Positions 39,963-59,243 of a stretch of DNA of 64,000 bases are shown piece after piece. The notes below the pieces were generated by a model. That model worked only from the letters and a program-made list of their open reading frames with translations, did not search any database and was not told where the DNA came from. How positions within the stretch are numbered: position 1 is the stretch's first letter; every line of letters starts with the position of its first letter. The stretch lies in NCBI GenBank assembly GCA_963667625.1, contig OY763921.1:1132359-1196358 (forward strand), in the 5' to 3' direction. This DNA comes from Thermodesulfobacteriota bacterium. Lineage in GTDB: Bacteria; Desulfobacterota_D; UBA1144; Nemesobacterales; Nemesobacteraceae. The position numbers and the translations under genes are program-made.

Positions 39963-39963
39963 T

Positions 39964-40896: not shown

Positions 40897-41411
40897 TGGA
40901 AGTTCACGAGGCTAGCGCGGTTAAGGGCGCGGCCGCCAGCGGAATAGGTTTTGTCATAACTCAGATATCCGTTTCTGGCCGGTTCGAGAGCGTGTGACCT
41001 CTTTACGGGAATCAGAGCTTCAAGTGCGTCCTGCTGGATTTTCGTCAGTTGGTACCAACCCGGACCGTAAACTAAATAGCTACCGAAACTTGCTCTGGAG
41101 ATATTCGCACCGGGATAAATACGGCCTGGGTCATTATCGTCTGCAGAAGCTCCTTCCAGATCCCGGGCTGTGTAGATGATCATAGGTTCTATCCACATAC
41201 CATTGCGCCGGAAGCCATATGTAACAGTTCCGAGACATCCGTATCGTAGCAATATTCTCAATTCCTCTTCAAACTCCGCAATACGCGCATCACTGGGCGC
41301 ATCGTAGAAACGCTGCATGCGTTTCAAGTCCGCAGCCACCTTAGCCGATATGTGCCTTGCGTGCGTGTAGGTGAATGTTGTTGTTTCTGTGGTGGTAAAA
41401 CTTGTGCTCAC
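40893..41411 (-). CDS. HORMA-domain protein (CBASS Cap7), putative
   Basis: 172 aa with no enzymatic motifs. Size and position between CD-NTase and AAA+ ATPase, with a 4-nt overlap, match type III CBASS architecture. Confidence 0.55.
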   Translation of the reverse strand: MSTSFTTTETTTFTYTHARHISAKVAADLKRMQRFYDAPSDARIAEFEEELRILLRYGCLGTVTYGFRRNGMWIEPMIIYTARDLEGASADDNDPGRIYPGANISRASFGSYLVYGPGWYQLTKIQQDALEALIPVKRSHALEPARNGYLSYDKTYSAGGRALNRASLVNFQ

Positions 41412-42464: not shown

Positions 42465-43544
42465 CGTGCTTTCAAGTTTGAAACGCAACAGGTGGATCAG
42501 CACCGAAGAGTACCTGATTCGGGGTTTTGAAGCCAAGGCATTGCCTCGGTCTGTTGTTCAATTTGTCCATAACTCTGTCTACATCTTCCTGGGTCAGTTT
42601 CCCGAAGTCCATTCCCTTTGGGAAGTACTGCCTTATAAGTCCGTTTGCGTTTTCACAGGACCCCCGCTCCCACGAGTGGTAAGGATGGGCGAAGTACCAC
42701 CGCGCCGAGAGCTCGCTTGATAGTTCCTCATGCAACGCGAACTCCTTTCCGTTATCGCACGTCACAGTCTCGAAGCGCTTGCGCATGGGTGTCGCCGCCT
42801 CGAGTATGGCCCGGGAGACGGAGGAAGCTTTTTTGTCCTCAGAGACCAGAATCATGCAATAGCGGGACTTGCGCTCGGCGAGGGTTACGAGCACCTTGCC
42901 TTTTTTTCTTGAGCCAAGCACAGTGTCGGCTTCCCAGTCTCCTGAGCGCACACGCTTATCCACCACTTCGGGGCGCTGGTCTATACAGACACGGTTTTTT
43001 ATATGTCCCCTGCGCGAGGGCGCTCCGTAGCGCTTTCTGCGCTTCTTGCGGCAGCGAAGGTGCGTGTGGAGATCTCCTCCATTAATCTTGTCTTCCCTTA
43101 CGTGATTGTAGATGCTCTGGTGGCTTACGCTGAGTCTTTCGTTTCGGGCAAGCCAGCAGCTTATCTGCTGGGGACTCCAGTCTTCTCCGAGCAGCAGCTC
43201 CACGCGAATCCAGGTTTGTTGGGGGATACGGTTTCCACAACAATTGCGCCTGCCCTCCGCAAGCCTCTGAGCCTGCTTGGGACGGTAACCCCGTTTGCCG
43301 CGGTTGCGGTGAAGTTCCCTGCTTATGGTGGATTTGTGCACGCCCAGGTGCCTTGCGGTCTGGGTCTGGTTGTGCCCTGCTTTGCGCAGGATGTAAATCT
43401 GGTATCTTTGTTCCAGGGTAAGTTGCTTTGGTTTTCTCATTCAAACGCTCCTTTTGATTTGGTCGTTAAAAGAGGGTTGCGAAGATTATCGCAACTTGCC
43501 CTTTTAATTTACATCAAAAGTTGCGTTTCAAACTTGAAAGCACG
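42465..43544. mobile_element. IS30-family insertion sequence (~1.08 kb) with 25-bp perfect terminal inverted repeats
   Basis: Left inverted repeat CGTGCTTTCAAGTTTGAAACGCAAC at 42465-42489. Its exact reverse complement GTTGCGTTTCAAACTTGAAAGCACG is at 43520-43544. A single transposase ORF lies between them. Confidence 0.85.
42472..43440 (-). CDS. IS30-family transposase
   Basis: 322 aa with an N-terminal HTH (LTLEQRYQIYILRKAGHNQTQTARHLGVHKSTISRELHRN) and a DDE core (WEADTV...D...E). Confidence 0.9.
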   Translation of the reverse strand: MRKPKQLTLEQRYQIYILRKAGHNQTQTARHLGVHKSTISRELHRNRGKRGYRPKQAQRLAEGRRNCCGNRIPQQTWIRVELLLGEDWSPQQISCWLARNERLSVSHQSIYNHVREDKINGGDLHTHLRCRKKRRKRYGAPSRRGHIKNRVCIDQRPEVVDKRVRSGDWEADTVLGSRKKGKVLVTLAERKSRYCMILVSEDKKASSVSRAILEAATPMRKRFETVTCDNGKEFALHEELSSELSARWYFAHPYHSWERGSCENANGLIRQYFPKGMDFGKLTQEDVDRVMDKLNNRPRQCLGFKTPNQVLFGADPPVAFQT

Positions 43545-43940
43545 ATACGATCGATAGGAAAATTTTCAAGTTTATTTTCGCATACATTCATATGTACATT
43601 ACAGGAGACTTCGAGTTAAGTATGGGCAAGTGAAAGAATCGCGGCTCAAGCCCTGTTTGCAGGGGTAGTGCACTTTAAAGTCAACGGGCGAATGAATTGA
43701 TTTGTTGTAAAATCGGAAGTAATCTTAATGTGTTAAAGAAATACACTTAACCTGTTGTGTAAATTTCGAGATCCACTTCTTACGCAGCAATTACGACAAC
43801 CGTTCTTGGGGCAAGGAGAAATTTGAAGAGCATCATATCGTATCCCGCAATGAAAACTGCATCCACATGGACAGAACATTCGGAAATAAGCCGGCAATTC
43901 CGAAAATAATAATCACAAAAAGAAAAAACAGGACTTTCTT

Positions 43941-44480
43941 GTGAAAATATCAAACACAATCTCGAAAATCCTTATCGTCTTGCTTATAGCCCTGCTTGCC
44001 TATACGCTCTGGAGCGGGCTTTCGGGAAAGGGAAATGTCGAAACCCCTTCCCAGCTTGTGGGAAAAACCGCACCCGAGTTCGCGCTGCAGTCATTTAACG
44101 GCGAAGAGGTAAAGCTTTCTGATTTTCGGGGAAAGACAGTACTTGTGAATTTCTGGGCATCTTGGTGTCATCCCTGCAGAGAAGAAGCCCCGGAACTTGA
44201 GAGAGCTTACATGTCGCTTTCAGGAAAACAGGTGGAATTCATAGGAATAAACGTAATGGACAACAGGAAAAGCGCCGAGAAATACATAAAATCGTTCGGG
44301 GGAACCTTCATCAACGTTCATGACCCGGAAAACAGAGTGCATCTCGATTACGGAGTAGGAGGGGTTCCAGAAACCTTCTTCGTAGACCCCGACGGTATCA
44401 TAACCGGCAAGCACAGGGGACCGATTACGGAGAAAATGATCATGCGCTATGTCGAAAATGCGGCTTCCTCTCGAAATTAA
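43941..44480 (+). CDS. ccmG: Thiol:disulfide interchange protein CcmG/DsbE (cytochrome c maturation)
   Basis: N-terminal TM anchor, VNFWASWCHPCREEAP and GVGGVPETFFVD, the CcmG signature motifs. GTG start. Confidence 0.8.
   Translation: MKISNTISKILIVLLIALLAYTLWSGLSGKGNVETPSQLVGKTAPEFALQSFNGEEVKLSDFRGKTVLVNFWASWCHPCREEAPELERAYMSLSGKQVEFIGINVMDNRKSAEKYIKSFGGTFINVHDPENRVHLDYGVGGVPETFFVDPDGIITGKHRGPITEKMIMRYVENAASSRN
44470..44479. repeat. Left copy of an imperfect 9-10-bp direct repeat (CTCGAAATTA / CTCGAAAATT) flanking the 14.3-kb restriction-modification + helicase/DUF1998 island
   Basis: CTCGAAATTA at 44470-44479 (the 3' end of ccmG) and CTCGAAAATT at 58834-58843 (just upstream of ccmH). Confidence 0.35.
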
Positions 44481-44494
44481 CTTTTGACCAGATT

Positions 44495-45718
44495 TCATCT
44501 AAGACTGAGAGAACGAACATCTCTTATGAAACTCTCAAATGATTGCAAGTGAGGTCGAACGTTTTTAGGAAAAGAAGAAATTATTGGCGTAGGTACAACG
44601 AGTTGAACTTTGGCTTTTACCATTTCCGCGAATTGATTTTCAGACACGCCTTCTTGAAGGGTTAGCAAATGCTTGATTTTAATTCTGTCGGCTTCGTTAA
44701 GAATTTGACGCCATCTGTCTTTGCAGGTCGTTTTGACTGCCAGCATTTTCAGCCGATTAGATAAATGGCTCTTCGATTTATAAGCCTTTTCTGAAGGAAA
44801 AAGGAAATCAGGTCTTTTCCCTTTCTCCGATTCAGGTTGGTGAGTAAAGTCCTCATTTTCAATTAATCCTTCTTCCAGAAAAATACGCTTGGCATGTAAT
44901 TCAAGCGATCGACCTGAGCGCGCTTTCCTTCTCTGTAAAATTGACTGAGCCTTTAAAATGAAATCATCCAAATTTGCAAATCCCTTTTTAATGAAAGGAA
45001 GCTCAACAGCTTCTTCCACACTTCTAAAAACCTCGAATTCATATTGTCTTCTTTTAACGAGCCTAGAATCAGGCTTAATCCCAAGTGCACCTTTGATATC
45101 GATAGTTTTTTGAATGATTTCCATACCAGTTGGAAATTTCTCCAACCATTGTTCGGGGATTTCATCCGGGTATAGCCAACAAGAGCTTCTATCTGTTGGT
45201 CTTTGTTTTTCTACTTCATCCGAGGACCACACCTTTCCTGCTCCGGGTTCGACGGGGCCAATTCGGTTCTCAATAAAATCTTCTTCAGTTTCATGTCGAC
45301 AAACCCAGACATGGCAAGAGACAGCTTCTCTATTACTATCCAACTCAAAAGCAAAAACGCTCAAGGCTCCGGTACTCTCAGGATCAAGAAGAGGTGAATC
45401 CTGTCCTCCAAAATTTGTCAGTCGAGCTTCATCCCTACCTCTTTTAGGATTTCCATGAAATTTGTTGTTATACCATATTGCTCTAATTCTCCGACAATCA
45501 GTGTGAGAATCCACATACAAATCAAACCAGAGATCAGGGTTTTTTATTTCCTTTCTGTTCAGTAACGGGAAAATATCAAACAAAAAGTCTTTTGGAATAT
45601 AGGGTCCTGCCTGATGGGAACCATTAGCCAGAGTGTCATTTCCAGAAAGACGCTTTACATACCAGATGAAATCCGAGTTAGAAACCTCAGCTACCCAATC
45701 ACTCAACTCCATCTGCAT
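44495..45718 (-). CDS. Type IIE restriction endonuclease, EcoRII family (likely CCWGG-specific)
   Basis: 407 aa, alignable by eye along its length to EcoRII: YVKRLSGNDT..GSHQAG, IWVC..TEEDFIE, RMLAVKTTCKDRWRQILNEADRI, PDFLFPS. Confidence 0.9.
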   Translation of the reverse strand: MQMELSDWVAEVSNSDFIWYVKRLSGNDTLANGSHQAGPYIPKDFLFDIFPLLNRKEIKNPDLWFDLYVDSHTDCRRIRAIWYNNKFHGNPKRGRDEARLTNFGGQDSPLLDPESTGALSVFAFELDSNREAVSCHVWVCRHETEEDFIENRIGPVEPGAGKVWSSDEVEKQRPTDRSSCWLYPDEIPEQWLEKFPTGMEIIQKTIDIKGALGIKPDSRLVKRRQYEFEVFRSVEEAVELPFIKKGFANLDDFILKAQSILQRRKARSGRSLELHAKRIFLEEGLIENEDFTHQPESEKGKRPDFLFPSEKAYKSKSHLSNRLKMLAVKTTCKDRWRQILNEADRIKIKHLLTLQEGVSENQFAEMVKAKVQLVVPTPIISSFPKNVRPHLQSFESFIRDVRSLSLR

Positions 45719-46169
45719 CTTTACCCCTTATTTCGAAGAAAGGTGAGCGCCCTTTTAACCACGCAACACATTCATCAATAATTCTTTTTAAGTCTTTTTT
45801 GTGTTTGCCTTTTATAGCACACTCCCAAATAATTAAAACTCTCCAGCCTTTTTCAGATAACATTTGAATCGATTCTTCATCGTGGTATTTGTTTCGAGTT
45901 ATTTTCTGTTTCCAGAAATCAGGTCTGGTCTTAGGCCATTTAAATAAATGACAATTGTGGAGGTGCCAAAAACAACCATGTATAAAGACTACGGCCTTAA
46001 ACTTAGGAAAAACGATATCCGGCTTACCAGGAAGATCTCGGACGTGAAGCCTGTATCTGTATCCAAGTGCATGGATTGCCTTTCGAATAAAAAGTTCCGG
46101 TTTGGTGTTTTTACCTTTAATGCCGGACATCATCCGGCTTCTTTTCTCAGTCGATACTATATCAACCAA
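45699..46169 (-). CDS. vsr: Very-short-patch-repair endonuclease Vsr
   Basis: 156 aa with KPELFIRKAIHALGYRYRLH and FIHGCFWHLHNC. Overlaps the upstream C5-methyltransferase gene as dcm/vsr do in E. coli. Confidence 0.9.
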   Translation of the reverse strand: MVDIVSTEKRSRMMSGIKGKNTKPELFIRKAIHALGYRYRLHVRDLPGKPDIVFPKFKAVVFIHGCFWHLHNCHLFKWPKTRPDFWKQKITRNKYHDEESIQMLSEKGWRVLIIWECAIKGKHKKDLKRIIDECVAWLKGRSPFFEIRGKDADGVE

Positions 46170-47430
46170 CTGCTCTAAGTTCCCTTTGGTTGATTTGGAC
46201 TAATTGTTCTTCACTTTCAAGTATCCAAGGAACCATATGTCTTGCAATGGCCTCAACAACTGGAACAACAACTGCATTGCCAAACTGTTTGTAAGCTTGT
46301 ATATCAGAAACGGGGATAACAAACCGGCTTTCTGTGGGTTCATCAAATCCCATCAGTCGAGCACATTCCCTTGGAGTCAATCTACGAGGATTTCTTCTAC
46401 CATGTTGTTTTACCAGAATTTCGGAACCGTCTTTGTAATATCTTGCAGAAAGCGTTCTAGTAGTATCGTTATGGCCAACTAGACTGTAACCGAAGCCGTT
46501 ACCCTTTTTTCGATGCTTTTCTGCATAAGCCTGAAGATAATTCCAGAGTTTATCAGAAAGCGTATATTTAGGGAGAACCTTTCCTTCTCCATCAAGAAAC
46601 TTCCGGTTTTGCTCATTGAAAGTTTCAGAACCGTCTTCAGTATGAAGGATGTTGCCCAGCCTTGGAGTATCTATAGAATTAGGTTGGACAAAATTTTCAA
46701 AACTGAAATCGTTTTCTTCCAGAAAGCCAACTATGAAGATTCGTTCACGATGCTGTGGTACCCATGATTTAGCATCAATAACACGACAATGGACCTGGTA
46801 TCCCAATTCTTCTGTCAAAGTTCTATGGATAACCTTAAAAGTATTTCCTTTGTCATGACTAACCAAGTTTTTAACATTCTCAAGCAAGAACGTTTTTGGT
46901 TTGTGGTACTCAATGATTCGTGCTACATCAAAAAAGAGCGTGCCTTGTGCTTCGCATCGGAATCCGTGAGGACGATTGAGAGAATTTTTCTTTGATACTC
47001 CTGCAATGGAAAATGGTTGACACGGAAATCCAGCTAATAAGACATCATGCTTAGGAATGTCTTTAGCTTCTATTTGAGTGATGTCACCTACTACCTCATG
47101 GTCGCACAAATAATTGGCTTTATAGGTTTGTTGTGCATATTTGTCCCATTCACTAGTAAACACACATTTACCGCCAAGAGGTTCGAAGGCTCTCCTCAAA
47201 CCACCGATTCCAGCAAACAAATCAATAAATTTAAAGGCGGACTTTACAGGTGCATCATATGTTCTGGCAAGTTCCCTTAATACACGAATAGCTGCTTTTC
47301 TAGGTTTTGTTTCTCCTCGCTCCCATCGATACAAAGTCCTAGCAGAGAACCCTAATTCCTTGGCTAGTTCTTCGATTGACAATCCTGTTTTTTCTCTTAG
47401 GATTGAAAATTCATTGTTAGCATTCTGCAT
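46162..47430 (-). CDS. dcm: DNA cytosine-5 methyltransferase (Dcm/M.EcoRII-like) with N-terminal XRE-type HTH domain
   Basis: Motif I DLFAGIGG, motif IV GFPCQPFS, ENV motif. N-terminal LREKTGLSIEELAKELGFSARTLYRWERGE helix-turn-helix. Confidence 0.9.
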   Translation of the reverse strand: MQNANNEFSILREKTGLSIEELAKELGFSARTLYRWERGETKPRKAAIRVLRELARTYDAPVKSAFKFIDLFAGIGGLRRAFEPLGGKCVFTSEWDKYAQQTYKANYLCDHEVVGDITQIEAKDIPKHDVLLAGFPCQPFSIAGVSKKNSLNRPHGFRCEAQGTLFFDVARIIEYHKPKTFLLENVKNLVSHDKGNTFKVIHRTLTEELGYQVHCRVIDAKSWVPQHRERIFIVGFLEENDFSFENFVQPNSIDTPRLGNILHTEDGSETFNEQNRKFLDGEGKVLPKYTLSDKLWNYLQAYAEKHRKKGNGFGYSLVGHNDTTRTLSARYYKDGSEILVKQHGRRNPRRLTPRECARLMGFDEPTESRFVIPVSDIQAYKQFGNAVVVPVVEAIARHMVPWILESEEQLVQINQRELRAVG

Positions 47431-47631
47431 TTTCTATCCTAGAAGGGGAATTTCTCTGCCATTATGGCAAAATGATATCTTTTTTTCTTCCTAGTCACAA
47501 GAAAAACTTTCTATAGTAATATATGGGAATTGATAGACTTGATCGGAAGAATGCTCAAATTACTATATTCGGTTATTAAGAAGTGGACCATCAATTATAT
47601 ATGCTTTTAAAATACTTCAAGGTGATTCCAA

Positions 47632-50600
47632 ATGAATGAATCAGGAATACTCACCTATAAAGACAGAGAATCTTTACGACGAAGGATCAGGGAGTCTAAT
47701 TCAGACTCATCAATTTCAAATGAAAAACTGATCCTGCATCTGTCTTCTGTTCTACAAAACCAAGGGGTAGAAAGTGAAGAGGAAAAAATATTTCAAGAAT
47801 ACACTTTTGATCTGATAAATGTTTTGAGGACAGCAGACAACAAAGAAGCATCTGAAATAGCCCAAGCAGTTTTAAATTTTATTGCAACAAATTTCCAAGC
47901 GGATGCTGAAGAACGATGGAAATTGCCAGCGAAACAAAGAGTTTATATCACGAGTGTAGCGATTAAAGAGATCTCGGAAATCATTAATTTGCCTAAAGCC
48001 AATGAAATACATGGATTAACTGTAAAAGAAAGGGCTGAAGCGGAAAAACTATTGTTAAGGTTTGCATCAGTTTCGGACAGTGTTGATTTAAAAAATCGCA
48101 ATCATGCCAAAAATTTTATTGAATTGTATGACAGGGAAAAACAATCCCGTTTAATGACTAGGTACTTAAAAAACATAAAACTTCTTGTTAGAGCTTTAGA
48201 GAGTGGTGATTTAAATACAGAGGACAGAGCATGGGCTAGGGGTGCTTTGAGTTATATCAGACTTAACAGAGATGTTATACCTGATGAGTATGGATTGATT
48301 GGGGTGCTTGATGATATGTACATTGCAAATTTGGCTGTTGGTCTTATTCGGCCAAGTGCACCACCGCTAACAGAACTAGTACTGGAATTCAGAAAAATTT
48401 GGCCGATTTTAAATGGACTGATTTTTTCTGAGGACAAGTCAGAGTATAGGTATACAGATATTGCATCCATTAATTCGGCGTTGGTCTGCATGCCATTGAG
48501 GGGTGAGAATCAATTACGAACAGCTCTTGTGCTTCCGTTTTCTGGGTGTACACCCAACATTATCGCAATTGCCGCTGTCTTTGGTGCAATATCTGTTCTA
48601 GCTAAAAAGGTGAAAGATGGTCCCGATTTCAAGATTGGAGACTTGGTTCGGGTTGATAATACAGCTGTCGCAACATATGGCGGAATATATGTATTTGAAG
48701 GGAAAGAATATATACGGTTGAATCAAGTTACTAAAAAGGCCAGCGAGAAGCAACCGGAACAAACAGTGACGAATCTAATTCCGTTGCAAGACAGTGCAAG
48801 ACTATGCCCGGCGAAGGCAGGATCCAAAACGCAAGGTGAAATTCAAACGTACTTGAAGAGTACAGAAAGAGAGCTTTCGGCAATTGAAAATCTTTTACAT
48901 TTGCCTCATCCACTTCAGTTTCACAGTATTGATTCTCATATATGGTTAATCTCATCTGCTGACAGAATGCGTTCTTTAGCAAAAGACTTAAGGGTCCACG
49001 GCCAGCGCCTTATTGATGTTTTCCCGATGGGACATATTAAAAGGGATGGAACTTGTGAAGCTTGGAGTGCAAGATTTGGAGAATCCGAATGTGTTCTGAT
49101 AACCGTAACTGATCTAGATTTAGCAGCAGAAATTTTGGAAGAAACAGAAGGAACAGATAGAGATTTGGTGATAGCTGATCTGTCAGGACCGAACAGGAAT
49201 CGTATCTCTTCCCTTGAAAGGGTTTTTGATCTTGATCTAAATGTCCTTTGTATTGCAGAAGAACGAGATGAGGGCTTAATTTCTATTGTCGAGCAATATA
49301 ATCCTGACATATGGGAGTGGAGCGGGGAGGAAGTAAGTGAGATAGGAAAATTCCCGCAATCTCAATCTGACAGCACCCACCCATTTTACAAAAATGACGG
49401 TCGTTTGATAAGAGCGATTTCAGGAAATACCTCTACCAGAGCAGTTCAACTTGAGTCTCTTGAGTGGTGCCATGCAACAATTTCAGCTGCGACCAAGAAG
49501 GTTCCCCTGGAAACTGAAGATAAGACTTTAGAATTTCATGAAATATACAGAAAATTGTTTTCGATATTCCTTCGATTGACGAGGATGCCTTTCCAGGTTG
49601 ATCCTGAGTGGTTTGGAAATGATGAGAAAGTTCTTTCCACCTTGAAAGAGCAACTGGTTTCCAGTGTTTTTATGACAGAGGAAGAGAAAAAATCTCTAAC
49701 TGATATAAGTATGCTTATACACAAGGCGGGTCAAGCTCTGGTTAATGCAAACCCTAAATGGACTGAGATGTATGAAATACTGAAATCAAATCCCAAAGCA
49801 AAAGTATTAATTCATAATCCCGCTGTTATCCCTGATGAACTTCAAAGTGAAAAAAAATATATTCTGATGAAAGAAGCGTGTTCGACAGCATGTGAAATTT
49901 TGATTGTGCCTTACTGGCCGGGGAAAGACAAAAGTTGGAAGTTGTTGACCGAAGCTGACGTTAAAGAAATAGTTTTTTTATTGTATCCCTATGAGGCTGA
50001 TTGGTATAAGAGTTTTGTTCGCCATAGAGAGTTATCACGACGTAGTAGAACCGAAAGACGCAATAGTCAGGCGATATTTCCAAAAGTTGGAACTTGGCCG
50101 AAAAAAACAGTAATGGAAAAACTGAGTGACAACTTGAGCCAAACCCCACATGAACTAGATCTTGTGGAGCTGAACAATAGCTACAGAAGAACCCGGATTA
50201 TCAAATCAATTGAATCAATGGAAAAAGATGTATCTGTTGAAACCCGTTTAGTTGGTTTTAGCGGAGGTGGGCATGCATTCTTGTCGTCAGGATATGAGGC
50301 TAGACTAGCCACTTACTTACTTGAAAGTGAAGCACATGCAAATACTGAAAATATTACTATAAGTTCTGCTGTGCTGGATAATCTTAATATAGGTGACGTG
50401 CTCATATTTCTAAAGGGGTCTGACAAAGATGCCATAAGAAAAATAGCGGATGAAAACTTACCTGAAGGGATGAGGAATTTGGCCAAGCTCTGGCAAACAG
50501 CACTTAAAGGTTATGTGGAAAAAGAAAAAGTGTCATTGGAAGAATTGGTATCGCTATTGTCTCAACAAGGCTGTAGAAAACATAGGGCAACGGTTAAGAA

Positions 50601-50934
50601 TTGGCTTGAGAGTGAAAATATTATTGGACCACGTAATGCCCATAGAGGGGATCTTGAAGCTATTGTCAATGTTACTAATGATAGTACGTTGTCAACAAAT
50701 TTACCACAATGTCAGAATGCAATCACCGAGGTATGGGGACAGCATTTAAAAGCAGCAAAGTTGTTAGCTAAAAATCTATTGGAAAAGATCAGCAGCAATA
50801 CAAAATTTGATATAGACATCGAAGAGCCTGTAGAAGTAATCGATGGGATACTGCTGGCGAAAATCGAGTTTATCGAGTCAGAAACAGTACATATCCCTCG
50901 ATCGAAAATAAACCGATTACTGGAGGAACTCTAA
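47632..50934 (+). CDS. Large hypothetical protein (1100 aa), first gene of a helicase + DUF1998 module. No P-loop or nuclease motif found. N-terminal DUF1232/YkvA-like segment.
   Basis: A long uninterrupted ORF in an AT-rich island. DVIPDEYGLIGVLDDMYIANLAVG resembles the YkvA/DUF1232 motif. No GxxxxGK[ST] anywhere. Confidence 0.5.
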   Translation: MNESGILTYKDRESLRRRIRESNSDSSISNEKLILHLSSVLQNQGVESEEEKIFQEYTFDLINVLRTADNKEASEIAQAVLNFIATNFQADAEERWKLPAKQRVYITSVAIKEISEIINLPKANEIHGLTVKERAEAEKLLLRFASVSDSVDLKNRNHAKNFIELYDREKQSRLMTRYLKNIKLLVRALESGDLNTEDRAWARGALSYIRLNRDVIPDEYGLIGVLDDMYIANLAVGLIRPSAPPLTELVLEFRKIWPILNGLIFSEDKSEYRYTDIASINSALVCMPLRGENQLRTALVLPFSGCTPNIIAIAAVFGAISVLAKKVKDGPDFKIGDLVRVDNTAVATYGGIYVFEGKEYIRLNQVTKKASEKQPEQTVTNLIPLQDSARLCPAKAGSKTQGEIQTYLKSTERELSAIENLLHLPHPLQFHSIDSHIWLISSADRMRSLAKDLRVHGQRLIDVFPMGHIKRDGTCEAWSARFGESECVLITVTDLDLAAEILEETEGTDRDLVIADLSGPNRNRISSLERVFDLDLNVLCIAEERDEGLISIVEQYNPDIWEWSGEEVSEIGKFPQSQSDSTHPFYKNDGRLIRAISGNTSTRAVQLESLEWCHATISAATKKVPLETEDKTLEFHEIYRKLFSIFLRLTRMPFQVDPEWFGNDEKVLSTLKEQLVSSVFMTEEEKKSLTDISMLIHKAGQALVNANPKWTEMYEILKSNPKAKVLIHNPAVIPDELQSEKKYILMKEACSTACEILIVPYWPGKDKSWKLLTEADVKEIVFLLYPYEADWYKSFVRHRELSRRSRTERRNSQAIFPKVGTWPKKTVMEKLSDNLSQTPHELDLVELNNSYRRTRIIKSIESMEKDVSVETRLVGFSGGGHAFLSSGYEARLATYLLESEAHANTENITISSAVLDNLNIGDVLIFLKGSDKDAIRKIADENLPEGMRNLAKLWQTALKGYVEKEKVSLEELVSLLSQQGCRKHRATVKNWLESENIIGPRNAHRGDLEAIVNVTNDSTLSTNLPQCQNAITEVWGQHLKAAKLLAKNLLEKISSNTKFDIDIEEPVEVIDGILLAKIEFIESETVHIPRSKINRLLEEL

Positions 50935-50992
50935 TCTAAGGATGATCCCCAAACAATTTACCCTGACATTAGACGATGAAGGAGACTAGTTC

Positions 50993-52909
50993 GTGAAGGA
51001 CAAAAAAGAAAAAACACTCTCACCTGTGGAGGAATTTCGTGCGGTGTTGATTGACCAGTTACATAAGGAACTGGTAGGCCCCAACCCCCTTCTGGGCGAC
51101 TTGGAAGAGATATTGGATGAATCTCCTAGGCAAAGATATTGTGCGGGCATACTGTTTCCTTCAAATGTTCTAAATAAGGAAACAGAAGATTATGACGAGA
51201 ATGGTAAGGAGATCAGGGAGATGGAAGGACATGAAATTGATCTTGCCAAAAAAGAAGTTCGTCACTCCAAGGCCGGAGAAGCAGAGACTCTGGATGAGTA
51301 TGATGACACAATCACAATGGCAAACACCTATATGCCTTCTGCAATGGGAATTTCCTTTTTATGCGATAATTCGCCTAGAGGTCTTAAAGTGGTGACGAGT
51401 GCTGCTATCTATAAAACAGCAAAGCGTAAAGTTGAAGAGCGCGAATTTAACACATGGATCCGTAATCCTCTGGATTTGCCGGTATTGACGATTAGTCTTG
51501 AGGTTGATAGCAAAGATATAAGAATCGTTGAGCAAAAACTGAGAGGAAACCTTAAAATTAAAGCTGTCATCAGACGCAGAAATGATGACTCACGGCTCGT
51601 GACAGTCTCTATGTATAACACGAAAGTTAATTCGAGCTCTGGTCCTGTCTCTGTTACAGATTGTTTTTTTCAGTCCAGTTTTAAAGTTTTCTCACCTGAT
51701 GGTTCAACTATTTTCAGAGCCTATCAAGAAATGGCAACAGAATCTGAAGATCCCGAAGAAACAAGCCTTCGTTTACTTTATAGAAACCGACTTTCCTTTG
51801 GGGTCGGGCATGGTTGTGCTGTCAAGTGGTCCAAGGCACAGGGTGGCAAGGTAGACTGTGTTGAAACAGACTCACTTCCTTTTCAAAAAATTCCACCTGT
51901 CGAACCCCGGGGTGGCCAAGGCGAAGAATTAAACATGGTTAGCTTGGCTGGAGGTCTGGATGGTAAGAAACAAGAAATAGTCCCAGACATATTACAGGCG
52001 CTTGTGAACGACTATTCGTCGTGGATAGAGGGCATTTTAACAGAAGCAGCTAGGTTTCAATCTCCCCTGAAGGAAGCAGCCGACAGACATATAGATCTAT
52101 GCCAGAAAGCCCGCGACAGAATACAAGACGGAATTGCCGTTCTGAAATCTAACCCGGTTGCGCTGAGTGCATTTTGTATGGCAAACAAAGCGATGCTTAT
52201 GCAACAGTATCACAACAAAAGAAGCTCTAGGTCTACCAATGAAGGGTGGTTAGATATCAGTAAGGACTATAACCCTGTAGAACCTTGGATGGGACGATGG
52301 CGTACTTTTCAGTTGGCATTTATTCTCATGAATCTTGGCACGGTAACACCCGATGCTAAAGGCAAATTTTCACCAGAACGTAATCTGGTGGATCTGATCT
52401 GGTTCCCGACAGGTGGCGGTAAAACAGAAGCTTACTTAGGTTTGGCGGCATACACCATATTTCTTAGGCGACTTTTACAACCCAAGAATGCGGGTTGCAC
52501 TGTATTGATGCGTTACACACTTAGATTGTTAACAGCTCAGCAGTTTCAAAGAGCGGCTGCTTTGATCTGCGCTTGCGAATCTTTAAGGTGTAAATCACCG
52601 GAATTGCTGGGTGAAGAAGTTATTTCAATTGGTCTATGGGTAGGTCAGTCTTTAACACCCAATACACGTAAAGAAGCTATAGGAGCACTAAATGAATTAG
52701 TAAAAAATCCTCATGGCGGTGAAAACAAATTTCAGTTATTAAAATGTCCATGGTGTGGTACGAGGCTGGATGAAGAAGGCAAGCTGGGTTACAGAGTAAC
52801 GGGAAAAACACCAAAAAGAATACTGTTTGTTTGTCCTGAAGATCGTTATAGCGCGACAATCAAGATTGAACTGTTGCGACAATCAAGATTGAACTCTGGG
52901 TGTCGCTGA
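50993..52909 (+). pseudogene. SF2 helicase (DrmA-like), N-terminal fragment, interrupted by an IS21-family insertion after helicase motifs I/Ia
   Basis: A large N-terminal domain followed by motif I WFPTGGGKTEAYLG and motif Ia LRLLTAQQF. The ORF then reads into the insertion-sequence terminal repeat and stops. Confidence 0.7.
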
Positions 52910-52941
52910 TTGTGAGACGATACCGGCATATCTGACAGATA

Positions 52942-53796
52942 TCAATCTCCAGTTTTCGAGGTCAAACCCTTCGAGTTTTTCTCGGTAGCGTATTTCGCGG
53001 GTCTGCCCCGTTTTTTCTTCACCTCCTCCTTCTTTTTCTCCATCGCATGACGCAACCTGTAGCTCTCCACGTTCATTTCAAGGATTACGCAGTGATGCAC
53101 AAGGCGATCCACTGCCGCCACAGCCGTATTTTCGTCAGGAAATACGTTTTTCCATTCCTCAAAGGGCTGATTCGCCGTAATAAGCAGTGACCTGCTCTCA
53201 TAACGGTTCGATATAAGCTCAAACAGCACCCTGGTTTCATCCCGATCTTTGCGTACGTACGCAAGATCATCGAGAATCAGCAGGTCATAACGGTTGAGTC
53301 GCTCAAGCATACTCTCCAGACGAAGCTCTCTATGGGCCATCTGAAGTCTCTGCACAAGGTCCGTCGTGCGGGTGAACATAACTCTTTTGCCCTGTTCCAC
53401 CAAGGCAAGCCCTATGGCCGAGGCAAGATGACTCTTCCCCACCCCCGGAGGTCCGAAGATTATCACGTTGTGACCTCCTTTGAGCCATGAATCGGTTGAA
53501 GCAAGCGCTCTTACCCTTGCCATGGATATAGTGGGAACCACAGAGAAGTCGAAGTTATCAAGACTCTTGCCGGCTATGAGATGAGCTTCGCTCAGGTGGC
53601 GCTGTATTCTCCTGCGCCCTCGCTCCGCGAGTTCGAGCTCGGCAAGCGCCCACAGCAGTCTTCCCGCCGGCCACCCCTCCCTGTCCGCCCGCTCGGCGAA
53701 CTGTTCCCAGGTGTTCTTTATGGCAGGCATTCTGAGTTCGGAGAACATCAGGGTAAGTCCCAGAGAATCTATTTTTGTGTTTTCTTTCGTGTTCAT
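52942..53796 (-). CDS. istB: IS21-family helper ATPase IstB
   Basis: 284 aa, Walker A GPPGVGKSHLA, DnaC-like AAA+. Confidence 0.9.
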   Translation of the reverse strand: MNTKENTKIDSLGLTLMFSELRMPAIKNTWEQFAERADREGWPAGRLLWALAELELAERGRRRIQRHLSEAHLIAGKSLDNFDFSVVPTISMARVRALASTDSWLKGGHNVIIFGPPGVGKSHLASAIGLALVEQGKRVMFTRTTDLVQRLQMAHRELRLESMLERLNRYDLLILDDLAYVRKDRDETRVLFELISNRYESRSLLITANQPFEEWKNVFPDENTAVAAVDRLVHHCVILEMNVESYRLRHAMEKKKEEVKKKRGRPAKYATEKNSKGLTSKTGD

Positions 53797-53822
53797 TGTT
53801 TTTCTCCTTTTTCTTCAATAAG

Positions 53823-55316
53823 TCAAAATAACGGCGTGTAGCTTGAAAGATCTCCCGCCTGGACGTCCACTTCCCTCATCGGCCCCGCTTTCATTGTGAA
53901 ACGCTCCTTGAGTCCGTCCATATCGGGCAGTTCTCCAGAGTTTACCGTGTCCCTTATCGCAAGCGCCAACTGGTCTTCACAGCTCTGCTCATGGGCCAGG
54001 GCAAGCAGTTTTACCGTGATTCTGCACGCCTCGCGCCTTCCAAGAAGTGAAAGAGCGAGCTCAAAACACTTTTTGTATTCCTCCCTTGGAAACAGTTCGT
54101 TGCGGTACACAAGATTCATAAGCGCTCCCGGCTTTTTCTTCAGAGAGTGAACCACATGATGGTAATTCACCTCGTAAACCGTTTTATCGCCGTCTTTTCG
54201 CCTTCTGGGAAGCGTCAGCTGATGACGGCCCCCGAAGTGCAGCTCTATGTTCGCATCATATACACGGGCCTCAAGACGGTGCCCTATGAGGCGGGAGGGA
54301 ACGGTATAGAACACTCCTTTGAGCAGAAAGCCGCCTGATGAGGTTACTGTCACGCTGTGGCGCTCATGCCAGGGCGCGGAACCCGCGGGAAGGGACCTCA
54401 GGGTTTTTCTCTCCGCTTCTATGCGCTCCGTTCTGCGGGCATTTATGTTCGAGGTCACCTCGGCAACAAAGTCGCGGTACTCTTCGATTTCCGCAAAGTC
54501 CCGGGACCCCCGAAGCTCTAAAGCGTCAGCTATTTCCCTTTTGAGATGACCGTGAGCCCCCTCTATGGCCCCGTTCTCATGGGCAACGCCCTTGTTGTTT
54601 CTCGTAGCTTCCATTCCGTAATGAGCGCAAAGATCCTCATATCTTCTGGTCATGTCTTTTTTCTGATCCTTGCTGAGGTTCTTGAATGCCGCGGAGAGTG
54701 AATCGGTGCGGTTCTCCGCGGGAGTTCCGCCGAGAGTCCGCAATGCCGCTTCAAGCCCCTGGGAGAAGGCGACGAAGCTTTCTCCTCCCTCAACTACGCT
54801 TGCGTGGACAAAGCCCGACCACGGGAGTCTGAAGTGAAAGAGCATATGATCAAACTGTCTTCTGGCGATTGTGACCTCAGCATCTCTCATCCTGGTAAAA
54901 TCGGAGATGCCCATATCTCCGGCTTTCTTGTTCTGGCGGAATATGACCTCTTTATCGGGGCCGTGTTCGGTTCTCCAGGTCCTTATACGCCTCTCAAGGG
55001 TGCGGCGAACCCCTGAGTCAAGCTCCGGATTGTTGCGAAGAAGCTCGTAAAAGACCGTAGAGGGCCTTATATCGGGACAATTACGAAGAATGGGGAGTAC
55101 CTGGGAGTCCCAGATGCCTTCAAGAGGGTCTGGGCGACGCCTCCCTCGGGGCTTTCTCTCCTTTTTCTGCTCTGTTCCAAGTTCTTTTTTGATCTGAAAG
55201 CCTGATGTGCGACCGAAGCCCGACTTGGCCGCAGCCGTTTCTGCTGAGAGTTTTTCTTCGGTGATGAGTTTCATGAATTTCCTCCTTTGTTCATCGGTTA
55301 TGTGTTGACCCGGCAT
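53823..55316 (-). CDS. istA: IS21-family transposase IstA
   Basis: 497 aa with an N-terminal HTH and a DDE integrase core. Confidence 0.9.
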   Translation of the reverse strand: MPGQHITDEQRRKFMKLITEEKLSAETAAAKSGFGRTSGFQIKKELGTEQKKERKPRGRRRPDPLEGIWDSQVLPILRNCPDIRPSTVFYELLRNNPELDSGVRRTLERRIRTWRTEHGPDKEVIFRQNKKAGDMGISDFTRMRDAEVTIARRQFDHMLFHFRLPWSGFVHASVVEGGESFVAFSQGLEAALRTLGGTPAENRTDSLSAAFKNLSKDQKKDMTRRYEDLCAHYGMEATRNNKGVAHENGAIEGAHGHLKREIADALELRGSRDFAEIEEYRDFVAEVTSNINARRTERIEAERKTLRSLPAGSAPWHERHSVTVTSSGGFLLKGVFYTVPSRLIGHRLEARVYDANIELHFGGRHQLTLPRRRKDGDKTVYEVNYHHVVHSLKKKPGALMNLVYRNELFPREEYKKCFELALSLLGRREACRITVKLLALAHEQSCEDQLALAIRDTVNSGELPDMDGLKERFTMKAGPMREVDVQAGDLSSYTPLF

Positions 55317-55487
55317 TGAAACCTCCTGTTCAAAGAAAATGAACAGAAGGCTTTACCAAATCAGCGACGAATACTGAAGGAAATTCTTCCCCCGGGATGG
55401 TGTCTGAAACTCCAGTCGGGCTACGCCCTCCTTCCGTTTCAGACACCATCCTCAGAGTTCAATCTTGATTGTCGCGCTAGTTCGAAG

Positions 55488-56972
55488 TTGATTGACGCGG
55501 TAGATCGTTGTGAGTTTAGTTCCTTAAAGAATCCATTGCCTGTTCTTGTTACGGATGAAGACATCTATGAGAACCCACCTGCATTACTTATAGGAACTGT
55601 GGATAAATTTGCCATGCTTGCTTGGCGTGGCCAAGCTTCCAGCCTGTTTGGAAAGGGTAAAAATGTCTTGCCACCGGAGTTGATAATTCAAGATGAACTA
55701 CACCTCATATCTGGCCCTCTGGGAACCTTTGTAGGTCTATATGAGGGAGTGATAGAACTGCTTTGTACAAGAAAAGATGGAACAAAGCCGAAAATTGTGG
55801 GTTCTACAGCCACAATAAGAAGAGCTGGTGATCAGTGTAAAGCACTCTATAATCGGGAAACTTTTCAATTCCCACCTCCAGGTATTGATTCCTCTGACTC
55901 ATACTTTGCTAAGGAGAATAATAACACTCCCGGTAGAATTTATATGGGCGTGTTTCCTACAGCCTCTCCATCTTTTGTCACAGCATTGGTTCGGACTGCT
56001 TCAAGTGTGTTGCAGGGAGTGAAAACTATAGATCTACCCGAGGGAGCGGATGAGAGCGTTCGGGATCCTTATTGGACTTTGGTTGAGTATTTCAACAGCT
56101 TGAGAGAATTAGGTCGGGCATTGACGTTACTACAGGCAGACATACCTGAATATATGTGGGTAGTTGCCAGTCGTTTAAAACTGCCAAAGGAAAAAGTTAG
56201 AAATCTTTACTCCATTGAAGAGCTTACTAGTCGCAAAAGCGCACAGGAAATTCCTGAAATCTTGGAAACGCTTAGTTTTTCTTGGCCTTTTGAAAAAGAA
56301 TCAAAAAAACGCCCCATTGATGCCCTGCTGGCCACAAACATGTTTTCTGTTGGTGTAGATGTCGATAGGCTGGGGTTGATGTCAATTGTGGGGCAACCTA
56401 AAAGCACATCTGAATATATTCAATCCAGTAGCCGGGTAGGACGTTCAAAGGATGCGCCCGGTTTAGTGATAGTTATGTATAATCCGGGCAAACCCCGTGA
56501 TCGTTCTCATTTTGAACAATTCCGAACTTATCACTCGGCACTTTATCGTTACGTTGAACCTACCAGTGTTACGCCCTATTCGATACCGGTTATGGAGCGT
56601 GCTTTACATTCATTGTTAGTGATTATTGGTCGTCATATAGCTGGTTGGAAAGATCCAGCAGATGCGGACTTTGATTCTCCCGAGGTCAATACAGCTTTGA
56701 GTGCTATAGTTGATCGATGCAAGGCAATTGACCCAGATCATCTTGAGATACTTGAAGAAAGATTCGAAGATTTAAAAAAACGTTGGTTAACTGCAGGTTT
56801 TGATACTTGGGGTACTCTTGGCAATCCTGATAAGTATAGACTACCGTTGATGTACCCAGCCGGCTCATCAGAATTAAGTGACTGGAACAGCAACAGTTGG
56901 GCAACTCCTAGCTCTATGCGGTTTGTCGACACAGAGTGTGAAGCAGAGGTTATCCATATTTACCCAGTATAG
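55488..56972 (+). pseudogene. SF2 helicase (DrmA-like), C-terminal fragment. Motif II DELH onward plus the helicase C-terminal domain.
   Basis: LIIQDELHLISGPLG (motif II), TATIRRAGDQ (motif III-like), LLATNMFSVGVDVDRLGLM and SSRVGRS (motifs V/VI). It continues the ORF interrupted at 52.9 kb. Confidence 0.7.
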
Positions 56973-56984
56973 AGAGGAAGTCTG

Positions 56985-58832
56985 ATGGCCAACAGAGAAA
57001 GAAGAATACGTAAGTCACAAATGATCTCACCTTACGGTGTTGGTGCAATAGTTGAATTTCCCAAAGAAACGTTAATGCATGCTGGCCTAGATGCTTGGAA
57101 TCCAGCAGAAGAACAAACCTTGTCTGATGATCGATTGGCTCGGCGACTTAAAGTCAAAATGTTTTACGAACCAGCACAAGCACCGGAGAAGAACAAACCG
57201 GGGAAGTGCATTCCTTTTGTCAGATTCCCTTTATGGCATGTTTGTCCTCGTTGTCGTGCCATGAAAAAGGTAGGATGGAATGCGAGACACCGACCCGTTT
57301 GTGACAGCGATCTAAAACCGCTATTTAACGGGTTGCCTTGCAGCAGATTTACTAAAAAGTGGCAAAAACCGATTATGGTGCCGGTGCGTTTTGTGATGGC
57401 TTGTAATCATGGCCATGTGGTTGACTTTCCTTGGATTGAGTGGGCTCATTCCTCCAAAGGGAAAAAGATTAGGAAAGGAACCGAGGTGTGTGACAGTCCC
57501 AAATTACGTCTCAGGGTTACAGGTCGGTCTGGATTAACAGGACTAAGTGTTAAATGTGAGAATTGTGGTACAGGTCGATCTCTGGCAGGTGCCACAGGTC
57601 CTAAAACGTTCATAGATTTCGGCTGTGGTGGTGAACGTCCTTGGTTAGGGCCAGAAGCAAGAGAAGACTGTAAGAGCGGAGTTCCACCTAGAGTTACTCA
57701 TAGGGGTGCAACCAATATTTATTTCCCAAAAGTAATTAGTTCAATTTTGATACCCCCTTATTCGACACATGTTAGACGGATAATCAGTAGACCCAAAAAC
57801 TGGAGCTTGATTAATAATAGCGTAGATGCTGACAGTAATATTAATGAAGAACAGGTCAAGTTGCTTTCTAAAATTTGGGAAATAGAATTTGATGATCTCT
57901 TGACAGCTATCAGAGACAAGCTAAGTGGTGAAACTCGACAGTCAGATCAAACAGAGGATGAGTATCGCCACGAAGAATACAAAGCTTTCAAGGTTGGGAA
58001 AAATCGCAAAACTACTGATGATCTGAATGTAAATCCACAAGATCTGTCCACCTATGACCAAGATATTGCACGGTATTTCAAAACCATCATTTTGGTGGAG
58101 AAGCTCACTGAAACCAGAGTCCTGACTGGCTTTACAAGAATAAATCCCCCTGATTCAGGGAACGTAACCGCCACTAGGACTGCTTCGCTATCAAAACAAC
58201 AGAAAGACTGGTTACCGGCAGTACGAGGGTACGGTGAGGGTATATTTTTCACAATTAAACAGTCGATTTTGGACGAATGGTCAAAGAATGACATGGTCTT
58301 AAAAAGGGTTAAGAAGCTAAACGATCGTCAGAATAAGATCCGTACTAGTCAGGGATATGCACCACGAGAGATTATGCCCGCATTCGTTTTGCTGCATAGT
58401 CTTGCTCATATCTTAATTAACCGTTTAAGCTTTAATTGTGGCTATGGAAGCTCGTCGTTAAGGGAAAGAATTTATTGTCGTCAAGAGGGAGAAGGAAAGA
58501 TGGCAGGGGTTTTGATATACACGTCTGCATCTGATTCAGAAGGAACTCTTGGTGGTTTGGTAAGACAAGGCCAACATGGGCGCTTCGAATCGGTACTTAG
58601 ACAGTCCTTGCTTGATGCTCTGAATTGTTCCTCAGACCCATTGTGTATAGAAAGTGAGGGGCAGGGGGCAGATGCACTGAACCTTGCAGCTTGTCACGCT
58701 TGCGCACTGTTACCAGAGACGAGTTGTGAAGAAGGCAATCGCTTGCTCGACAGATTGCTACTTGTGGGCATGCCTCAACAATATGATGTAGGATACTTTG
58801 GTAGTCTAGTAAATAATTTGTTAAGTGGCTAA
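56985..58832 (+). CDS. DUF1998-domain protein (DrmB-like)
   Basis: 615 aa. A Cys cluster CPRCRAMKK...CENCGTGRS and a C-terminal CHACALLPETSCEEGN. It follows the helicase gene after 12 nt, as in the DISARM drmA-drmB pair. Confidence 0.6.
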   Translation: MANRERRIRKSQMISPYGVGAIVEFPKETLMHAGLDAWNPAEEQTLSDDRLARRLKVKMFYEPAQAPEKNKPGKCIPFVRFPLWHVCPRCRAMKKVGWNARHRPVCDSDLKPLFNGLPCSRFTKKWQKPIMVPVRFVMACNHGHVVDFPWIEWAHSSKGKKIRKGTEVCDSPKLRLRVTGRSGLTGLSVKCENCGTGRSLAGATGPKTFIDFGCGGERPWLGPEAREDCKSGVPPRVTHRGATNIYFPKVISSILIPPYSTHVRRIISRPKNWSLINNSVDADSNINEEQVKLLSKIWEIEFDDLLTAIRDKLSGETRQSDQTEDEYRHEEYKAFKVGKNRKTTDDLNVNPQDLSTYDQDIARYFKTIILVEKLTETRVLTGFTRINPPDSGNVTATRTASLSKQQKDWLPAVRGYGEGIFFTIKQSILDEWSKNDMVLKRVKKLNDRQNKIRTSQGYAPREIMPAFVLLHSLAHILINRLSFNCGYGSSSLRERIYCRQEGEGKMAGVLIYTSASDSEGTLGGLVRQGQHGRFESVLRQSLLDALNCSSDPLCIESEGQGADALNLAACHACALLPETSCEEGNRLLDRLLLVGMPQQYDVGYFGSLVNNLLSG

Positions 58833-58844
58833 CTCGAAAATTTC

Positions 58845-59243
58845 ATGAACTCTCTTTTTCGTAAAATTCTAAGTATAGGACTTTTCTTACCCTTGGCTTT
58901 TTTTATCGCCTTCCAAGTGAATGCGGATACACTTGAGGATCAAATCGCCGAAATCTCGGGAGAACTCATGTGTCCCGTATGCGAGGGCCAGAGCGTCGCG
59001 GAGTCAAACGCCCAGCTTGCCAGGGACATGAGGGCCGTAATAAAAACAAAGCTGCTTGAAGGCAAGTCAAAGGAAGAAATAATAGATTATTTCGTCTCAA
59101 GCTACGGAGAAACTATTCTCGCATCTCCTCCGCCCAGAGGATTCAGCGTAATATTATGGCTCCTGCCCGTACTTTCCGTACTTATCGGCGGAGCGATAAT
59201 CCTGAGAACCGTTTACTCATACAGGGTTGAGGAAAAAAAATAG
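58845..59243 (+). CDS. ccmH: Cytochrome c-type biogenesis protein CcmH
   Basis: Signal peptide, LMCPVCEGQSVAESNAQLARDMR (the CcmH CxxC motif) and a C-terminal TM segment. Confidence 0.85.
   Translation: MNSLFRKILSIGLFLPLAFFIAFQVNADTLEDQIAEISGELMCPVCEGQSVAESNAQLARDMRAVIKTKLLEGKSKEEIIDYFVSSYGETILASPPPRGFSVILWLLPVLSVLIGGAIILRTVYSYRVEEKK

Follow-up and report, generated by a model that had tools for sequence, protein, structure and literature searches.

The interval from position 44481 to 58844 of a 64,000-nucleotide stretch of contig OY763921.1 (the window, by which we mean the whole stretch analysed), from a Thermodesulfobacteriota bacterium of the Dadabacteria, is likely to be a horizontally acquired, modular anti-phage island at a fixed hot spot between a ccmG-like gene and ccmH, with a history that would involve exchange mediated by its flanks. 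The host belongs to an uncultured phylum with small genomes (about 1.5–2.4 Mb). According to the map of open reading frames (ORFs) and their translations, the interval spans 14,364 bp; it carries an EcoRII-type restriction-modification (RM) cassette and a DISARM module interrupted by an insertion sequence (IS). Gene identities were assigned with Pfam, PADLOC, NCBIfam and PDB sequence searches, all of which agreed. The features of the locus are the following:

43941–44480, plus strand: ccmG-like thiol:disulfide oxidoreductase (TlpA/ResA/DsbE-like), 179 aa, Pfam AhpC-TSA/Redoxin
44460–44494: left junction, GCGGCTTCCTCTCGAAATTAACTTTTGACC..., in which native ccmG homology ends at about 44467–44471 and which holds the left copy of the claimed repeat (44471–44480)
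44495–45718, minus strand: EcoRII-type restriction endonuclease, Pfam EcoRII-N 3e-54 and EcoRII-C 6e-60
45699–46169, minus strand: Vsr very-short-patch-repair endonuclease, Pfam Vsr 2e-30, NCBIfam TIGR00632 150 bits (cutoff 98)
46162–47430, minus strand: C5 cytosine DNA methyltransferase (Dcm/DrmMII-like) with an N-terminal helix-turn-helix (HTH), Pfam DNA_methylase (PF00145) 1e-86 and HTH_31/HTH_3
47431–47631: divergent dcm/drmE intergenic region
47632–50934, plus strand: drmE, 1100 aa, NCBIfam DrmE_fam 246.8 bits (cutoff 80), PADLOC DrmE
50993–52847, plus strand: 5' part of drmA, codons 1–618 of the DISARM helicase, PADLOC DrmA 4e-86
52848–55501, minus strand: IS21-family element, 2,654 bp, 52% GC, with istA (53823–55316) and istB (52942–53796)
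55510–56972, plus strand: 3' part of drmA, PADLOC DrmA 2e-137
56985–58832, plus strand: drmB (DUF1998/MZB), 615 aa, NCBIfam DrmB_fam 497 bits (cutoff 240), Pfam MZB, PDB 7S9V chain B E=1e-76
58833–58844, plus strand: remnant of the native ccmG 3' end, CTCGAAAATTTC
58845–59243, plus strand: ccmH, 132 aa, Pfam CcmH 111 bits (cutoff 25)

A previous sequence-only reading had placed the end of ccmG at 44480 and the start of ccmH at 58845 and had proposed that a defence island separates two genes that are normally adjacent. Both coordinates were exact, and the motifs it named are present: WASWCHPC and GVPETF in the ccmG-like protein (a thioredoxin fold with WCHPC) and LMCPVCEG in CcmH, whose CXXC motif is CPVC. 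The insert leaves spacers of 14 bp (44481–44494, up to the EcoRII stop codon) and 12 bp (58833–58844, after the drmB stop codon), so ccmH now lies directly downstream of drmB.

A scan of genome collections with CcmH retrieved 37 loci, about 30 of them from Candidatus Dadabacteria/Thermodesulfobacteriota metagenome-assembled genomes, with CcmH identities of 66–93% (80–93% between the window ccmH and that of relatives L001–L026). When the proteins of the window were mapped onto these loci, the gene order malic enzyme–HAD–aldo/keto reductase–otsAB–ccmG–ccmH–miaA–pnp–truB was found to be kept in about 28 genomes. The ccmG stop codon overlaps the ccmH start codon by 4 bp (ATGA, GTGA or TTGA) in 26 of 30 Dadabacteria-type loci; the other four have a gap of at most 0.3 kb, and none of the 30 carries a larger insert there. 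Hence, in the relatives both genes are normally adjacent and, as judged from the overlapping codons, predicted to be translationally coupled, a closer association than had been proposed, and the empty site that was sought does exist. CcmG has 187 residues in the relatives (185 in three of them) and 179 in the window; according to the alignment, the last 12 or so native residues were swapped for SSRN*.

The base composition of the interval also differs from that of its surroundings. Without the IS21 element, the island has a GC content of 41.1% (39.3% in the RM part and 41.7% in the DISARM part), versus 48.5% and 49.8% in the core flanks, and GC at third codon positions (GC3) is 30–37% in island genes and 49–56% in core genes. 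Sliding-window values were mostly 36–44% across the interval, with a single block of 52–54% at about 53.0–55.5 kb. Uniform composition over 44–59 kb was thus not observed, in agreement with the description of the insert as AT-rich and foreign-looking. Together, the foreign composition and the empty sites in relatives support the proposal that this defence island arrived by horizontal transfer and was inserted exactly between ccmG and ccmH.

Carriers of the island and its spread

Protein searches with DrmB (87–96% identity) and EcoRII (94–100%) yielded close copies, and the contigs encoding them were recovered. Exact-sequence look-ups of the window CcmG and CcmH gave no hit, nor did one of P0241, the EcoRII cluster representative that is 100% identical over the aligned length. 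Six further metagenome contigs have the same left junction and a 179-aa CcmG:

L055: complete and IS-free, ccmG (179 aa)–EcoRII–Vsr–Dcm–DrmE–DrmA (1104 aa)–DrmB–ccmH
L054 and L059: as L055, with drmE split by an IS1595 element plus an N6/N4 DNA methylase (742–6528 in L054, 2250–8036 in L059); the otsAB–ccmG gap is empty
L058 and L061: RM trio followed, in place of DISARM, by PDC-M33A/B/C (4329–8102 in L058, 173–928 in L061)
L060: RM trio and the start of drmE, at the contig end

PDC-M33 is a candidate defence system that includes DUF6339, and the EcoRII–Vsr–Dcm trio that it adjoins is 97–99% identical. Comparing L055, which carries DISARM, with L058, which carries PDC-M33, the RM trio is 99.2% identical and ccmH 97% identical. 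The left junction and the 179-aa CcmG, present in all carriers, indicate a single ancestral insertion, from which the junction common to seven lineages would derive. The inactivation of DISARM in L054 and L059 by IS1595 in drmE is independent of that in the window, and the RM trio is intact in both contigs. In L055 (11840–11865), the drmB stop codon TAA has become CAA and DrmB gains five residues from the ccmG-tail remnant (…QPENP*); the TGA of the extended drmB overlaps the ATG of ccmH, an arrangement that is predicted to re-create translational coupling.

The divergence of the RM trio differs markedly from that of its flanks. Across all 15 carrier pairs, the trio is 95.8–99.2% identical; in the same contigs, the values are 88.6–94.6% for otsAB, 83.9–96.3% for ccmG, 85.7–97.0% for ccmH and 84.5–93.8% for miaA (flank median about 89%). 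At third codon positions, EcoRII, Vsr and Dcm are 93–97% identical to the window, versus 70–85% for malic enzyme, aldo/keto reductase, otsAB, ccmG, ccmH, miaA, pnp and truB, a four- to fivefold lower divergence of the trio at these positions. Intermediate values were obtained for the DISARM genes, with third-position identities of drmB of 82% to L055 and 92% to L054. We take the lower divergence of the trio as a sign that it spread by recombination via its conserved flanks. Additionally, the body of the window ccmG (43880–44455) is 95–97% identical to L022 and 82–87% identical to every other relative, carriers included, which places recombination breakpoints no more than about 25 nt from the junction with the island. 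The best relatives of otsAB and ccmH in the window differ from those of ccmG; the flanks are therefore mosaic.

From these results, we propose a single illegitimate insertion in an ancestor, in which ccmG lost about 25 nt at its 3' end and would have been uncoupled from ccmH. Homologous recombination in the conserved genes on either side may then have carried the island from one diverged Dadabacteria lineage to another, with the RM trio serving as one homology arm for the swapping of adjacent cargo (DISARM or PDC-M33). As the gene just downstream of drmB, ccmH would now be expressed from island-derived signals.

Restriction-modification and DISARM genes

EcoRII, Dcm and Vsr form the classical CCWGG trio. 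By family, the methylase would mark CCWGG, EcoRII would cut incoming unmethylated CCWGG DNA, and Vsr would mend the T:G mismatches that arise from deamination of 5-methylcytosine. CCWGG sites are about threefold depleted in the island (5 observed versus 12–16 expected) and not in the core (73 versus 74–81), which provides indirect support for this specificity. The EcoRII homologue is full length, with the N-terminal effector and the C-terminal catalytic domain; it aligns to residues 7–398 of E. coli EcoRII (PDB 1NA6, E=2e-92), with PDFLFPS and AVKTTCKDRWRQILNEAD conserved. In PADLOC, the C5 methylase scored higher with MTase_II (3e-156) than with DrmMII (5e-136). The detection of both EcoRII domains by Pfam next to a C5 methylase and Vsr bears out the EcoRII-type RM system of the sequence-only reading. 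The trio is intact in the window and is kept as a unit in the seven contigs.

In the dcm/drmE intergenic region, similarity to the PDC-M33 carriers stops at about 47518, a position that appears to mark a module boundary. The same region contains the palindrome GCCATTATGGC (47458–47468), which is conserved in L055 and L058 and is a candidate operator to which the HTH domain of the methylase might bind. An HTH at the N-terminus of a methylase is a controller-like feature also present in SsoII-type methylases.

The second module had been described as helicase/DUF1998 genes. These are indeed present, and the description can be refined: as judged from profile matches, the module is a class 2 DISARM system (DrmE, DrmA and DrmB) without drmC, and its drmA is cut by IS21. 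DrmA is a YprA-like helicase with a Helicase_C domain, encoded just before drmB, and DrmE is encoded upstream of DrmA/DrmB, in synteny, in L038–L051. No ORF with a PLD domain (DrmC) was found in 44481–58844, where all non-nested ORFs of at least 80 aa were assigned. According to the bioRxiv paper 10.1101/2021.12.28.474362, which cites Ofir 2018, deletion of drmA, drmB or drmE ends the protection conferred by class 2 DISARM and drmC is dispensable; the same paper reports that DrmMII methylates CCWGG. The DISARM module has no methylase of its own, and by analogy it probably uses the adjacent C5 enzyme (Dcm/DrmMII-like) for self-marking.

The element inside drmA was identified by istA (transpos_IS21, 189 bits, cutoff 160) and istB (IstB, 273 bits, cutoff 200) with NCBIfam. 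Its ends have terminal inverted repeats with two 20-nt repeats each, and it is flanked by an 8-bp target duplication, AGATCGTT (52840–52847 and 55502–55509). When the element and one copy of the duplication are removed, 50993–52847 joins 55510–56972 in frame and yields an uninterrupted DrmA of 1,105 aa. The restored drmA is colinear with the intact genes of L054 and L055 (1105 and 1104 aa), with 5–6 substitutions in 79 nt; the insertion is therefore recent. Because IS21 splits drmA, DISARM is probably inactive in the genome of the window, by analogy with the deletion mutants. IS21 was also considered as the mover of the island and rejected, since its own 8-bp duplication lies inside drmA and the element is missing from all other carriers. 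The absence of an integrase was correctly noted as far as tyrosine and serine recombinases are concerned; istA and istB had been overlooked.

We also considered whether EcoRII/Vsr/Dcm and DrmE/A/B could constitute a single DISARM variant in which a PD-(D/E)XK nuclease replaces the PLD nuclease DrmC. The DISARM module of the window comes without its own methylase or nuclease, the methylase scores 5e-136 with the DrmMII model, and DISARM loci of about 50% identity have an AspBHI/Mrr-type restriction endonuclease and Vsr after drmB; moreover, in L039 an HTH–C5 methylase and a protein with an EcoRII-C domain are co-oriented upstream of drmE. However, the 97–99% identical trio stands beside PDC-M33, without DISARM, in L058 and L061, indicating that it is self-sufficient and separable. 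It is also transcribed divergently from drmE, and it remains intact in two carriers in which DISARM was knocked out by IS elements. On balance, a single system seems rather doubtful. We regard as unlikely an elaborated form of this idea, in which EcoRII/Vsr/HTH-Dcm would be the nuclease and self-marking arm of DISARM, one CCWGG methylase would license both systems, and ccmH would depend on transcription and translation of the island and thereby stabilise it in the chromosome.

In a metagenome scan with the restored DrmA, only relatives of at most 62% identity were found. The DrmA relatives (about 50–60%) lie in loci with the order C5 methylase–DrmE–NERD/helicase–DrmA–DrmB–AspBHI_N/Mrr nuclease–Vsr. 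These arrangements suggest that restriction-type nucleases recurrently replace DrmC in this branch of DISARM.

A separate DISARM locus was observed in L056 (57–19921) and L057 (989–10547), with a DrmB 70% identical and the order DrmE–NERD–DrmA–DrmB–AspBHI/Mrr nuclease–C5 methylase–Vsr. It adjoins a VapE-like primase, AlpA and a tyrosine integrase, and resembles an integrative, satellite-like element with DISARM as cargo; as such, it shows a route by which these cassettes travel in other hosts.

Junctions and alternative histories

The left junction is the same in all six other carriers, save for one substitution in L058, and is unrelated to native ccmG tails; the left-end sequence AACTTTTGACCAGATTTCA adjoins the EcoRII stop codon. 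Native ccmG continues for about 12 more codons (...YNxQSxxxENx) to the overlapping stop codon; the window and all carriers read ...AASSRN*. At the right end, the 12-nt remnant placed directly before the ccmH start codon is homologous to CTTGAAAACCA in L022 and ACTGAAAACCC in L001. The native ccmG tail has lost about 25 nt at this site, a deletion and not a duplication.

The sequence-only reading had described an imperfect direct repeat at the two ends and regarded it as consistent with duplication of an attachment or target site. The 10-mers CTCGAAATTA (44471–44480) and CTCGAAAATT (58833–58842) are present as written; the exact match is only a 7-mer. In random pairs of same-size windows drawn from the window sequence, a shared 7-mer or longer appeared in 8% of the trials (P ~0.08), and a 10-mer within one edit in 5.3%, a degree of similarity that the observed pair does not reach. 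The repeat is therefore not evidence for an attachment site or a target duplication, given that it is near chance, its right copy is the native end of ccmG, and this copy varies among the carriers (CCCGAAAATC in L054, CCCGAAAACC in L055 and ATTGAAAACC in L058); at most, it represents microhomology in an illegitimate event. No terminal inverted or direct repeats were detected at the island ends besides those of IS21, no tRNA or tmRNA within 36 kb of the island, and no tyrosine or serine recombinase in the island with Pfam. The suggested search for tRNA or attachment-site remnants thus returned neither a tRNA nor a conserved repeat.

These observations bear directly on the idea that the island integrated site-specifically or by transposition, with CTCGAAA(A)TT as the duplicated site (predicted to occur once, as CTCGAAATT, in an empty site with the tail intact). 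This would explain why two similar 9–10-mers stand exactly at both homology breakpoints and why all carriers keep the left copy. However, the decay of the right copy, the frequency of such matches by chance, and the lack of recombinase, terminal inverted repeats and nearby tRNA argue against it, and a simple duplication would not have removed the roughly 25 nt of native sequence that are missing between the positions expected for the copies. We consider integration of this kind quite improbable.

An ancient island, vertically inherited in Dadabacteria, with the empty sites arising by secondary precise deletions, is very improbable. Seven carriers with diverged flanks do have one common junction, as this history predicts, but the empty sites hold a full 187-aa ccmG and the 4-bp overlap, and a deletion could not regenerate the lost 25 nt or so. 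The low third-position divergence of the RM trio relative to its flanking genes and an island GC3 still about 20 points under the host value are also at odds with it. Finally, an assembly or binning artefact that misjoined foreign DNA between ccmG and ccmH, as the abrupt change of composition at both junctions could suggest, is scarcely credible, because the same junctions occur in six independent assemblies (ENA, JGI and Logan samples) and a 1.86-Mb contig on record encodes an EcoRII protein of 405 aa that, over the aligned length, is 100% identical to the 407-aa protein described here.

Several points weigh against the proposal of a horizontally acquired island exchanged through its flanks. 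No recombinase, terminal inverted repeat or clean target duplication points to a mechanism for the original insertion. The ccmG homology tract from the breakpoint to the junction is only about 25 nt, which is short for RecA-dependent exchange. The conservation of the RM trio could come in part from selection and not from recent transfer, although the third codon positions argue otherwise. Expression of ccmH from the island is presumed: promoter-like counts were not above the shuffled control, terminator-like counts were slightly above it (about 1.6 SD), and no promoter could be assigned to ccmH. The sharing of the methylase by DISARM is likewise presumed, and the CCWGG specificity of the trio is inferred from family membership and the site counts. 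Lastly, the ccmG-like protein scored below the NCBIfam cutoffs of both DsbE (105.6, cutoff 123) and ResA (134.5, cutoff 170), and no ccmABCDEF genes were found near ccmG/ccmH in the window or its relatives, where the neighbours are otsAB upstream and miaA downstream (window and about 28 relatives); the label of a cytochrome c maturation operon is thus tentative. The relatives of the protein are named TlpA family by NCBI, and the name "CcmG" is best understood here as denoting a TlpA/DsbE-like partner of CcmH.

In the same window, a CcdA/DsbD-type (DsbD_TM) membrane thiol transporter is encoded 15 kb upstream of ccmG, adjoining a PIN-domain toxin gene; the two genes lie at 28616–29371 and 29423–29830. 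This transporter is a possible electron donor to the CcmG/CcmH pair.

The hot spot and its relation to known systems

The insert between ccmG and ccmH is not the only one at this locus. A second island, overlooked in the sequence-only reading, occupies the slot between otsAB and ccmG, which in relatives is a gap of 82 bp:

36907 to about 43880: island A, with a CBASS pair, type III CBASS and IS30
37230–37781: CBASS 1TM effector
37985–38785: possibly truncated cyclase
39240–40139, 39964–40896, 40893–41411 and 41422–42387: type III CBASS, NucC, TRIP13, HORMA and CD-NTase, respectively
42465–43544: intact IS30, with 25-nt perfect terminal inverted repeats and ATA on both sides

The IS30 element is missing from all related loci examined. 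The possibility that both islands form one unit was rejected, as the otsAB–ccmG gap is empty in L059, L060 and L061, which do carry the ccmG–ccmH island (island B). In other genomes the otsAB–ccmG slot holds different cargo: type III RM (Mod and Res) with an embedded HepT toxin and a Metallophos-GAAD protein in L015 (794–9410), PD-T7-4 and an AriA/PtuA-like ATPase in L058, and a 2,070-aa fibronectin-III/Calx-beta repeat protein with SIR2 in L029 (1807–8727). The gap between ccmH and miaA is 12 bp long and empty in the window; in about ten genomes it contains a toxin-antitoxin pair of about 1.8 kb, HTH (HipB-like) and HipA (L015, at 10532–12174, L008, L013, L014, L016, L018, L019, L023, L055 and L058). 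As judged from gene order, the otsAB–ccmG–ccmH–miaA region is a three-slot hot spot, whose contents across genomes include DISARM, PDC-M33, RM, CBASS, type III RM, PD-T7-4 and HipBA.

The core defence hot spots of Pseudomonas aeruginosa (cDHS1/2; Johnson et al. 2023, PMC10250203) and Escherichia coli (Hochhauser et al. 2023, PMC10121019) are likewise fixed between core genes and, as here, have a highly variable, defence-dominated content, a GC content under that of the genome and no consistent hallmark of mobile elements. For those of P. aeruginosa, transfer via flanking homology has been proposed, not shown (PMC10250203). Unlike in these known cases, the insertion point described here lies inside a gene pair that overlaps by 4 bp, the upstream gene is truncated, three adjacent slots are in use, and the host belongs to an uncultured phylum with small genomes. 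This locus does not resemble an integrase- or transposase-borne genomic island, since it has no recombinase, conserved flanking repeat or tRNA target.

Regarding the gene content, the class 2 DISARM of B. paralicheniformis (drmE–drmA–drmB–drmC–drmMII; Ofir et al. 2018, as described in 10.1101/2021.12.28.474362) has the same DrmE, DrmA/DrmB pair and DrmMII/CCWGG-type methylase; the DrmAB structure used in the comparison was PMC9142583/PDB 7S9V. In contrast to that system, no PLD DrmC is present here, the methylase is divergent and comes from an EcoRII/Vsr cassette that is also found without DISARM, and drmA is interrupted by IS21. The E. coli EcoRII–Dcm–Vsr system (type IIE, PDB 1NA6; dcm and vsr overlapping) shares with the window the two-domain EcoRII, the adjacent Dcm-type methylase and a Vsr that overlaps its neighbours; unlike E. 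coli Dcm, the methylase described here carries the N-terminal HTH.

The island is thus a case of a recurrent core defence hot spot and not a new kind of element or mechanism. It provides a sequence-level example of how defence islands devoid of recombinases persist and move: the shared junction, the low divergence of the RM genes and the swap of cargo give comparative support to hot-spot exchange via flanking homology, and two carriers illustrate independent IS knock-outs of DISARM that leave the RM trio intact. The locus also documents a rich turnover of defence genes in the small genomes of an uncultured marine phylum and, for annotation, teaches that a coupled gene pair can be split and its upstream gene truncated with neither gene being lost.

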